Assembly (NCBI RefSeq): GCF_056746865.1
Contig: NZ_CM163382.1
DNA length: 64,000 bases
Direction: 5' to 3' (one strand)
Shown in pieces: positions 23,501 to 26,500 of the stretch; the stretch's first letter is position 1, and each line of letters opens with the position of its first letter. The position numbers were made by a program.

Positions 23501-26500
23501 GGGTTATCAGGCCGATAACCAACCACAGGCTGCGGTTGTCAGCGGTGACCATCATGTTATCGCCGATCATCCCCCAGACCATCACCGGGATACCCACCGC
23601 CAGTGCGACAATCGCCTGCCAGCGGAAGCGCTTCATCGTAGCGACGGCGGTTTCTTGCTGGCGCTCGCGGCGTTTAGCGTCATCTTCAATCGCTTCCGCG
23701 CCGTAGCCCGCTTTTTCCACCGCCTGCACTAAATCTTGTGGGGAGGCACTGCCCATCACCAGCGCAGTACGCTCCGCCAGGTTTACCCGTGCCTGAGTGA
23801 CGCCCGGTACGCTTTGCAGCGCATTTTGTACGCGGGTGACACAGCTGGCGCAGCTCATGCCGCTCAGCAGCAACTGCTGGCTGTCATCGTCATCGGCGGT
23901 CGCTGCCGGAAGCGCCTCAGAAACCGCTGTCAGTGCTTCCGACGGGATTGATGACTCCGCCAGCGGTTTAGCCTTTGGGTGGCTTACAGATGCGTCATAA
24001 CCCGCTTGTTTGATGGTTTCGATCAGCTGTTCTGCACTGGCAGTCCCGGTAACGTGCGCTTCAGTGACAGACACATCCGCCTGCTCAACATCCGGGCGCT
24101 GTTCGAGACTTTCTTTCACGCGTTTAACGCAGTGACCGCAGGACAGGCCGTCCAGGGTCAGGTCGATAGTTTGTGACATAAAACACTCCTTTTAAGACAG
24201 TTTTGACTGGCTGTGATAAAGGTTAAACCTTCCAGCAAGGGGAAGGTCAAGAAATTAATAAACCAGGCGGGTAAAAGTCCGTAAAGATTAAAAAATCGGC
24301 TCGATTTGCATCAGGATTAGACATTTATCTCTTTGTTTTCCTGTAGTTAAGTTGCGGGTGCTAAGTTAAATCAGGATGCCTGAAAATCGGCACCGGGGTG
24401 AGGAATTACCTCCCGCATCTATAAAAAGGAGTTAACAAAAGATGTTAGATGCAAACAAATTACAGCAGGCAGTGGATCAGGCTTACACCCAATTTCACTC
24501 ACTTAACGGCGGACAAAATGCCGACTACATTCCCTTTCTGGCGAATGTACCTGGTCAACTGGCAGCAGTGGCTATTGTGACCTGCGATGGCAACATCTAT
24601 CGCGCGGGTGATAGTGATTACCGCTTTGCGCTGGAATCCATCTCGAAAGTCTGTACGTTAGCCCTTGCGTTAGAAGATGTCGGCCCGCAGGCGGTACAGG
24701 ACAAAGTTGGCGCTGACCCGACCGGATTGCCCTTTAACTCAGTTATCGCCTTAGAGTTGCATGGCGGCAAACCGCTGTCGCCACTGGTAAATGCTGGCGC
24801 TATTGCCACCACCAGCCTGATTAACGCTGAAAATGCCGAACAACGCTGGCAGCGAATTTTACATATCCAACAACAACTGGCTGGTGAGCAGGTAGCGCTC
24901 TCTGACGAAGTAAACCAGTCGGAACAAACAACCAACTTCCATAACCGGGCCATTGCCTGGCTGCTGTACTCCGCCGGATATCTCTATTGTGATGCAATGG
25001 AAGCCTGTGACGTGTACACCCGTCAGTGCTCCACGCTCATCAATACTGTTGAACTGGCAACGCTTGGCGCGACGCTGGCGGCGGGTGGTGTGAATCCGCT
25101 GACGCATAAACGCGTTCTTCAGGCCGACAACGTGCCGTACATTCTGGCTGAAATGATGATGGAAGGGCTGTATGGTCGCTCCGGTGACTGGGCGTATCGC
25201 GTTGGTTTACCGGGCAAAAGCGGTGTAGGTGGCGGTATTCTGGCGGTCGTCCCTGGCGTGATGGGAATTGCCGCGTTCTCACCACCGCTGGACGAAGAAG
25301 GCAACAGTGTTCGCGGTCAAAAAATGGTGGCATCGGTCGCTAAGCAACTCGGCTATAACGTGTTTAAGGGCTGATCATGATGAACACGGAAGGTAATAAC
25401 GGTAACAAACCCCTCGGTCTATGGAATGTCGTTTCCATCGGCATTGGGGCAATGGTGGGGGCGGGGATCTTCGCGCTGCTGGGGCAGGCTGCGTTGCTAA
25501 TGGAAGCCTCGACCTGGGTCGCCTTTGCTTTTGGCGGTATTGTGGCGATGTTTTCCGGTTATGCCTATGCGCGTCTGGGGGCGAGCTATCCCAGCAATGG
25601 CGGCATTATCGACTTCTTTCGTCGCGGATTAGGCAACGGTGTCTTTTCGCTGGCGCTCTCGTTACTGTACCTGTTGACGCTGGCGGTGAGCATCGCCATG
25701 GTCGCCCGTGCTTTTGGCGCTTATGCCGTGCAGTTTTTGCATGAAGGCAGCCAGGAGGAGCACCTTATTTTGCTCTACGCGTTGGGGATCATTGCGGTGA
25801 TGACGCTTTTCAACTCCTTAAGCAACCATGCGGTAGGGCGGCTGGAAGTGATCCTCGTCGGCATTAAAATGATGATCCTGTTATTGCTGATCATTGCAGG
25901 TGTCTGGTCGCTGCAACCGGCGCATATTTCCGTCTCTGCGCCCCCCAGCTCCGGTGCGTTCTTCTCCTGTATCGGGATAACCTTCCTTGCCTATGCGGGC
26001 TTTGGCATGATGGCGAACGCGGCGGATAAAGTGAAAGATCCGCAGGTCATTATGCCACGGGCGTTTCTGGTGGCGATTGGCGTTACCACGTTGCTTTATA
26101 TCTCGCTGGCGCTGGTTTTGCTTAGCGATGTATCGGCATTAGAGTTAGAAAAATATGCCGATACTGCCGTAGCGCAGGCAGCTTCTCCGCTGCTCGGGCA
26201 TGTGGGTTATGTGATCGTCGTCATCGGCGCTTTACTGGCGACGGCTTCAGCCATCAACGCGAACCTGTTCGCCGTGTTTAACATCATGGACAACATGGGC
26301 AGCGAACGCGAACTGCCGAAGCTAATGAATAAATCCCTGTGGCGGCAGAGTACCTGGGGCAACATCATTGTCGTGGTGTTGATTATGCTGATGACGGCGG
26401 CGCTGAATTTAGGCTCACTCGCCAGCGTTGCCAGCGCCACCTTTTTGATCTGCTATCTGGCGGTGTTTGTGGTGGCGATCCGCCTGCGTCATGATATTCA

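Follow-up and report, generated by a model that had tools for sequence, protein, structure and literature searches.

The CueR-type copA promoter of an Escherichia coli chromosome in which a type I secretion island lies between it and cueR

The 64-kb window analyzed here (64,000 nucleotides of contig NZ_CM163382.1, RefSeq assembly GCF_056746865.1) carries copA, encoding a Cu(I)-exporting P-type ATPase, and, some 28 kb away, cueR, encoding a Cu(I)-sensing regulator of the MerR family that acts in trans. This layout raises the question of whether the promoter-like element found upstream of copA is a genuine CueR-dependent promoter and, if so, how cueR came to be so distant and from where it is transcribed. 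As judged by sequence comparison, the element is almost certainly PcopA, a functional sigma-70 promoter of copA under the control of CueR. The position of cueR turned out to be the less ordinary part of the locus.

On the minus strand, the window reads cTTGACCttccccttgctggaaggttTAACCTttatcacagcc at PcopA. Direct reading, pattern scanning, and identity with K-12 delimited a -35 hexamer TTGACC (24250-24245), a spacer of 19 bp, TTCCCCTTGCTGGAAGGTT (24244-24226), and a -10 hexamer TAACCT (24225-24220), in agreement with the minus-strand TTGACC-N19-TAACCT proposed in a previous sequence-only reading of this DNA. This pattern, read at 24250-24220, had a single match in the window when both strands were scanned, with 0.01 expected from 100 dinucleotide-preserving shuffles. 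A dyad scan located the putative CueR operator, the inverted repeat CCTTCC-N7-GGAAGG, at 24246-24228 with 0 mismatches, and its extended form, ACCTTCC-N7-GGAAGGT, spans 24227-24247. The dyad had been described as lying inside the spacer; it is indeed perfect, except that its left half-site takes in the final 2 bases of the -35 and is to that extent outside. At the other end, GGAAGG is separated from the -10 by a gap of 2 bp, TT (24227-24226). Similarly, the range first assigned to the promoter, 24211-24250, contains it and also takes in ~9 nt past the -10, around the start-site region. The start-site region and 5' UTR of copA, placed by alignment with K-12, occupy 24180-24219 (minus strand), with a Shine-Dalgarno GGAG at 24189-24186 preceded by a run of four A (24193-24190), one A more than in K-12. 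The copA ATG is at 24179, and the -10 ends 40 nt upstream of it.

When 2 mismatches were allowed in the 12 specified positions of the dyad, four extra matches appeared in the window (12135, 42346, 47744, and 57169), all of them intra-coding and devoid of flanking hexamers. With 1.86 expected, this number corresponds to chance level, and they were rejected as further CueR sites. When the full 64 kb were scanned against Rfam, no RNA element was detected at the promoter.

PcopA is already known and ordinary, a textbook CueR promoter that counts among the best-characterized of the MerR type. The K-12 version was reportedly characterized in Outten 2000, Stoyanov 2001, and Petersen & Moller 2000, and PcopA/CueR structures are said to have been described in Philips 2015 and Fang 2021; crystal and cryo-EM structures were reportedly solved on exactly this PcopA sequence. 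In our alignment, the 281-nt copA-glsA intergenic region was the same as that of K-12 MG1655 at all positions bar the extra A of the 5' UTR (AAAAGGAG in the window versus AAAGGAG in K-12 MG1655), and the comparison with K-12 PcopA that had been suggested as a check gave identity across the whole promoter. Hexamers, 19-bp spacer, dyad, 2-bp gap, downstream copA, and divergent glsA are common to both, and the differences are limited to the four rather than three A before GGAG, cueR at 28.3 kb rather than ~2.5 kb, and a single substitution in CueR, D103N.

Experimental work on K-12 PcopA, which includes structural studies, describes a spacer of 19 bp, the core box CCTTCC-N7-GGAAGG, and a -10 set 2 bp away from that box, and moving the box by 1 bp in either direction weakens or abolishes activation (PMC8169799). 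In a comparative study, the consensus of CueR sites within the 19-bp spacer was given as ACCTTCCC-(5)-TGGAAGGT (PMC1526738). The window promoter fits the three features of the former and the consensus of the latter, and both dyad and spacer length, the two properties named for testing in the sequence-only reading, are conserved relative to characterized CueR sites. For the identical K-12 sequence, transcription dependent on cueR and on Cu(I), Ag(I), or Au(I), together with a CueR footprint on the dyad, is established (PMC8169799). Taking together the identity with K-12 PcopA, all the published geometry, and the intact copA and cueR genes (see below), the original assignment as a CueR-dependent, MerR-type copA promoter with a 19-bp spacer is well supported at the level of sequence, and no sequence feature speaks against it.

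The same geometry is found at PcueO of K-12, for which the K-12 record gives TTGACC-N19-TATGCT, half-sites CCTTCC and GGAAGG, a 2-bp overlap with the -35, and a 2-bp gap to the -10. The two promoters differ in the central 7 nt of the dyad (CGTAAGG in PcueO versus CCTTGCT in the window PcopA), in the -10 (TATGCT), and in the target gene, cueO. PcueO sits elsewhere on the chromosome, outside the window.

Conservation was assessed at two levels. Within the species, a 351-nt query over the region matched 5422 of the 5426 complete E. coli genomes, every time between annotated copA and glsA, and the window is recognizably E. coli chromosome. A 55-nt promoter segment (24206-24260) was found in 5420 of the 5426 genomes and was 100% identical in 5351 (98.6%). 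A 55-mer carrying the run of four A had identical matches in 889. At the family level, we scanned by script 80 loci around cueR from different Enterobacteriaceae species, 73 of which contain the copA start. TTGACC-N19-TAnnCT together with the dyad was present 31 to 76 nt upstream of copA in 71 of these 73 species. The -35 TTGACC was unchanged and the spacer was 19 bp long in all 71 orthologous promoters, with a -10 that read TAACCT in 50, TAAGCT in 13, and TACCCT in 8; the exact spacer 19-mer of the window was found in 16 of them. What varied was almost exclusively the 7-nt center of the dyad and positions 3-4 of the -10. A near-box that recurs within qmcA of relatives was rejected as a CueR site, being conserved coding sequence.

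A sigma-70 scan of the copA-glsA intergenic region, restricted to spacers of 16-18 bp, found no promoter, which is to be expected if copA is served by PcopA, with its deliberately suboptimal 19-bp spacer, and we discarded the idea of a canonical promoter there that would make PcopA redundant. The probability that the motif is a look-alike, either a chance or a decayed one, or that copA transcription depends on a different promoter or regulator (e.g., CpxR) and CueR is irrelevant, is in our estimation vanishingly small: the expected number of chance matches, the identity with a functional K-12 promoter kept letter by letter in the E. coli genomes counted above, the avoidance of half-sites and hexamers by substitutions across 71 species, and the empty 16-18-bp scan all stand against it, and conservation effectively refutes it. 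PcopA can be used here as a secure annotation anchor for copA, the CueR regulon, and the E. coli chromosome.

We infer both the mechanism and the response to copper from what is established for the same sequence in K-12 (PMC8169799). At a spacing of 19 bp, RNA polymerase alone would find the hexamers 2 bp too far apart and wrongly phased. A CueR dimer would occupy CCTTCC-N7-GGAAGG between the hexamers with or without copper, and the metal-free regulator would keep the DNA in a form unusable by RNA polymerase. Once Cu(I) (or Ag(I) or Au(I)) is bound at Cys112 and Cys120, CueR would kink and under-twist the spacer, and this distortion would give the hexamers the spacing and phasing they have in a 17-bp promoter. 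A contact made by CueR residues S32, E33, and T38 with the non-conserved region of sigma-70, as described in K-12 (PMC8169799), would then stabilize the complex and lead to copA transcription. Since CueR acts in trans, the 28-kb distance to cueR would have no effect on the promoter mechanism; what it alters is only the expression of cueR itself.

Both genes required for this control are intact. The PcopA target, copA (21675-24179, minus strand), is an ORF of 834 codons coding for a P1B-type ATPase that is identical to K-12 CopA at 825 of 834 positions (99%), scores 1747 bits against the NCBIfam equivalog NF007952 (cut-off 1316), and has the same programmed-frameshift region as K-12. The cueR gene (52583-52990, plus strand) was identified by alignment with K-12 and by equivalog models (NF007590, 308 bits with a cut-off of 244; TIGR02044, 206.6 bits with a cut-off of 147.4). 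Its product is identical to K-12 CueR at 134 of 135 positions, D103N being the sole change, and Cys112, Cys120, Ser77, and the sigma-contact residues S32, E33, and T38 are all intact in the alignment with K-12. Neither D103N nor the extra A of the copA 5' UTR affects the operator or the metal site. The D103N substitution falls in the CueR dimerization helix.

PcopA itself adds nothing new. The non-trivial by-product of its analysis concerns how the cueR neighborhood evolved and whether cueR may be coupled to an adhesin-secretion operon. The cueR ATG (52583) lies 28,333 bp from the -35 (24250), matching the figure of about 28 kb given in the sequence-only reading. Most of this distance is due to a type I secretion and giant-adhesin island of ~25.8 kb (26698-52488, plus strand), absent in K-12; its genes were identified with the annotation of a near-identical strain and its limits are the endpoints of the K-12 deletion described below. 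Four genes separate ybaT from cueR, namely a TolC-family gene (27007-28362), a gene for a BapA/SiiE-like (siiEA/RTX) adhesin of 6925 aa (28471-49248), a type I secretion ABC exporter gene (49252-51414), and an hlyD-type type I secretion adaptor gene (51411-52586, plus strand; TIGR01843, 327.7 bits). A terminator scan detected a strong intrinsic hairpin 3' of ybaT (26681-26703, plus strand; -16.3 kcal/mol, z = -6.2), which in this strain separates glsA-ybaT from the island and hence from cueR. An RstA box with one mismatch follows at 26713-26726.

The island is O-island 28 (OI-28) of enterohemorrhagic E. coli (EHEC) O157:H7, an adhesion system activated by RstA and Ca2+ and driven from the region upstream of tolC28, from whose promoter all five genes, hlyD28 included, respond to both signals (PMC12758282). 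The location between ybaT and cueR, the gene order (tolC28-rtxA28/rtxB28-hlyB28-hlyD28), and the RstA-box region described there are the same as in the window, and hlyD is 97.4% identical between the window and O157:H7 genomes. The adhesin is encoded by a single ORF of 6925 aa in the window versus two RTX ORFs in EDL933. The same work regards OI-28 as acquired and leaves cueR unmentioned (PMC12758282), and a literature search for a link between cueR and the island found nothing.

In K-12, ybaT and cueR are separated by a spacer of 124 bp. Over the last ~90 bp before the cueR ATG, this spacer aligns with the hlyD 3' terminus apart from a 1-bp deletion, and its left end stops within the ybaT terminator hairpin, whose truncated K-12 version has a folding energy of -6.8 kcal/mol and z = +0.56. 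An hlyD 3' remnant next to a truncated ybaT terminator points to a deletion of ~25.8 kb in K-12, equivalent to window positions ~26698-52488. Read in this way, the proximity of cueR in K-12 is a deletion scar and not the ancestral E. coli state. Among the 5426 complete E. coli genomes, hlyD is kept in 959 and the K-12 junction is present in 4458. The hlyD-cueR junction is intact in E. whittamii and in Escherichia sp. E1V33, the locus labeled E. coli strain SCPM-O-B-8794 shows a different, partial deletion, and E. albertii has an independent hlyD remnant, shorter and more diverged. These junctions and remnants imply that the junction between hlyD and cueR would predate the split of E. coli and E. 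albertii. The hlyD remnants of K-12 and E. albertii indicate an ancestral island that was probably lost repeatedly. The K-12 arrangement copA-glsA-ybaT-cueR would accordingly be a deletion derivative, a point that matters when OI-28 is read as an acquisition or is deleted beside cueR.

Looking further back, 40 of the 71 species have cueR divergent from copA, its ATG 9-11 bp ahead of the copA -35, and the remaining 31 carry an insertion of 67 to 8469 bp at this same point. The first of these is the apparent ancestral layout of Enterobacteriaceae. The statement that the island displaced cueR holds relative to that ancestor; relative to K-12 it does not, the hlyD 3' remnant showing the reverse polarity. 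The cis element of PcopA is almost frozen, yet the position of cueR is highly plastic, from 10 bp to 28 kb.

PmerT-PmerR of Tn21/Tn501, the MerR archetype, and PcopA share the over-long spacer of 19 bp, a regulator dyad placed between the two hexamers, and a mode of activation in which the DNA is distorted; they differ in dyad sequence and metal specificity. The copA-cueR divergon of the 40 species is arranged like merR versus merT. In Escherichia the divergon is broken by glsA-ybaT, and here also by the 25.8-kb secretion island, a layout in which a mer-type promoter overlap permitting autoregulation is impossible. The window locus is not a MerR-type divergon, with cueR 28.3 kb off and in the same orientation as the island and glsA-ybaT.

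From where, then, would cueR be transcribed? The TGA stop of hlyD and the ATG of cueR overlap on the same strand as ATGA (52583-52586), and over the final ~580 bp of hlyD (52000-52600, plus strand) scans turned up neither a terminator-like sequence nor a consensus sigma-70 promoter. The description of cueR as fused to the operon agrees with these observations, as a statement about gene arrangement. It is plausible that cueR is co-transcribed with the secretion operon, although we place this a little below even chances. We hold with the same reserve the wider reading that cueR is transcribed as the last gene of an RstA/Ca2+-activated type I secretion operon, perhaps translationally coupled, so that CueR dosage and the set-point of PcopA repression and induction would follow adhesin expression and not glsA-ybaT or a private promoter. 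Besides the shared ATGA and the uninterrupted 3' end of hlyD, it is favored by the strong ybaT terminator, which would block read-through from glsA-ybaT in this strain, by the RstA box of the island, and by the reported response of the OI-28 genes, including hlyD28, to RstA and Ca2+ (PMC12758282). The only good Shine-Dalgarno-like sequence, AGGAGG, sits 13 nt 5' of the cueR ATG, and such a long gap would favor termination-reinitiation.

Against this stands the fact that K-12 shares the ~90 bp 5' of cueR and expresses the gene in the absence of the operon, so that a weak promoter within this stretch could serve both types of strain. No candidate for an independent cueR promoter emerged when the 3' end of hlyD and the ybaT-cueR spacer of K-12 were scanned against the consensus; such scans see only near-consensus sites, and a weak promoter would be undetectable with them. 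Modest changes in CueR dosage may also not matter, given that CueR has zeptomolar sensitivity to Cu(I) and binds its site in both forms.

For K-12, a ybaS-ybaT-cueR operon has been predicted (PMC1526738), which fits the loss of the ybaT terminator. The K-12 deletion would have destroyed this terminator and rejoined cueR to the acid-resistance operon glsA-ybaT. As a whole, the scenario in which cueR is the terminal, translationally coupled gene of the RstA/Ca2+ adhesin operon in the ~18% of E. coli with OI-28, with this arrangement ancestral and K-12 bearing a 25.8-kb scar, seems to us somewhat more doubtful than co-transcription taken by itself. If true, copper-sensor dosage would be tied to different physiological signals across E. 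coli lineages, and the OI-28 deletion mutants already published might have polar effects on cueR and copA that went unnoticed. As a minor observation made by eye, TTGAAT in K-12 takes the place of TGGATT in the island form, 16 nt upstream of a TAACAA.

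The K-12 spacer between ybaT and cueR (6870-6993 of L003, the K-12 locus) retains, directly 5' of cueR, the 3' end of hlyD (ca. 90 bp, with a 1-bp deletion). The K-12 layout is thus the product of a deletion of ca. 25.8 kb, which removed the secretion island O-island 28 (window 26698-52488), and not the ancestral state. The K-12 junction is common to 4458 of the 5426 complete E. coli genomes, while hlyD is retained in 959 of the 5426, and E. albertii carries its own independent hlyD remnant.

The deletion endpoint in K-12 also removed the 3' arm of a strong intrinsic terminator hairpin found 3' of ybaT in the window (26681-26703, plus strand; -16.3 kcal/mol, z = -6.2). 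Because of this loss, read-through from ybaT to cueR would be allowed in K-12, while in the window strain the terminator would block it. Within ybaT, K-12 has an intragenic sigma-54 binding motif, CTGGCACTGGTTTTGCT, oriented toward cueR (PMC4591121). Its counterpart in the window, CTGGCGCTGGTTTTGCT (26106-26122, plus strand), also lies inside the gene and differs by an A-to-G change within the -24 element.

The island body has a G+C content of ca. 60%, versus ca. 50% in the flanks. The 338-bp region 5' of its TolC-family gene is AT rich and contains an RstA-box-like sequence, TAATTCAAATTTCC (26713-26726, plus strand), with one mismatch to the box for RstA that EHEC has 5' of tolC28, where it has been mapped (PMC12758282). 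The TolC-family gene itself (27007-28362) is intact in the window, whereas its annotation in strain 7/2, which is nearly identical in other respects, gives a frameshift. The adhesin (28471-49248) is a single ORF of 6925 aa, whereas EDL933 has been described with two RTX ORFs.

Across other Enterobacteriaceae (loci L010 to L083), the cueR ATG is located 9 to 11 bp from the copA -35 element in 40 of 71 species, forming a MerR-like divergon. The remaining 31 species have 67 to 8469 bp inserted at exactly this point, which indicates that the 10-bp cueR-copA gap is a recurrent insertion site. Some relatives show a second box similar to the copA promoter, or a degenerate copy of it, adjoining cueR (L060, 4055-6264; L063, 6336-9988; L015, 849-3720), and the ORFs inserted between the copies resemble paired small secreted or immunity-like proteins together with a larger toxin-like protein. 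The presence of promoter-like copies flanking the inserted ORFs suggests that the CueR-dependent promoter was duplicated in the course of insertion.

The CueR proteins of the window and K-12 differ only at residue 103 (codon 52889-52891), in the dimerisation helix, which is Asn in the window and Asp in K-12. In the copA 5' UTR, the Shine-Dalgarno GGAG is preceded by AAAA in the window (24190-24193, minus strand) and by AAA in K-12; since this run sits upstream of the Shine-Dalgarno, an effect of the extra A on copA translation is unlikely. The window's 55-mer at this site is identical in 889 of the 5426 genomes, and most of the others differ at one position. The programmed -1 frameshift of copA gives rise to the CopA(Z) chaperone, and the corresponding region (23850-24010, minus strand; slippery sequence CCCAAAG) is identical to that of K-12.

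Between cueR and ybbJ, which abut in K-12, the window has a 3.4-kb segment (52991-56367) with two small ORFs on the minus strand, a 120-aa ORF, a naRNA4/REP-type element (56241-56318), and a YadA-like autotransporter adhesin ORF (53670-55472) of 600 aa, only 338 aa long in strain 7/2. The ybaP-copA gap is just 171 bp (21504-21674), versus 795 bp in K-12, where it holds ybaQ (a HigA-like regulator); ybaQ is thus missing from the window strain. Strain 7/2 has an IS1397 insertion 3' of gsk that the window lacks. Rfam matches, taken at the gathering score, corresponded to a DnaX frameshift element (6886-6950), a naRNA4 element downstream of gsk (14873-14950), and the sroB/ChiX sRNA between ybaK and ybaP (20627-20710).
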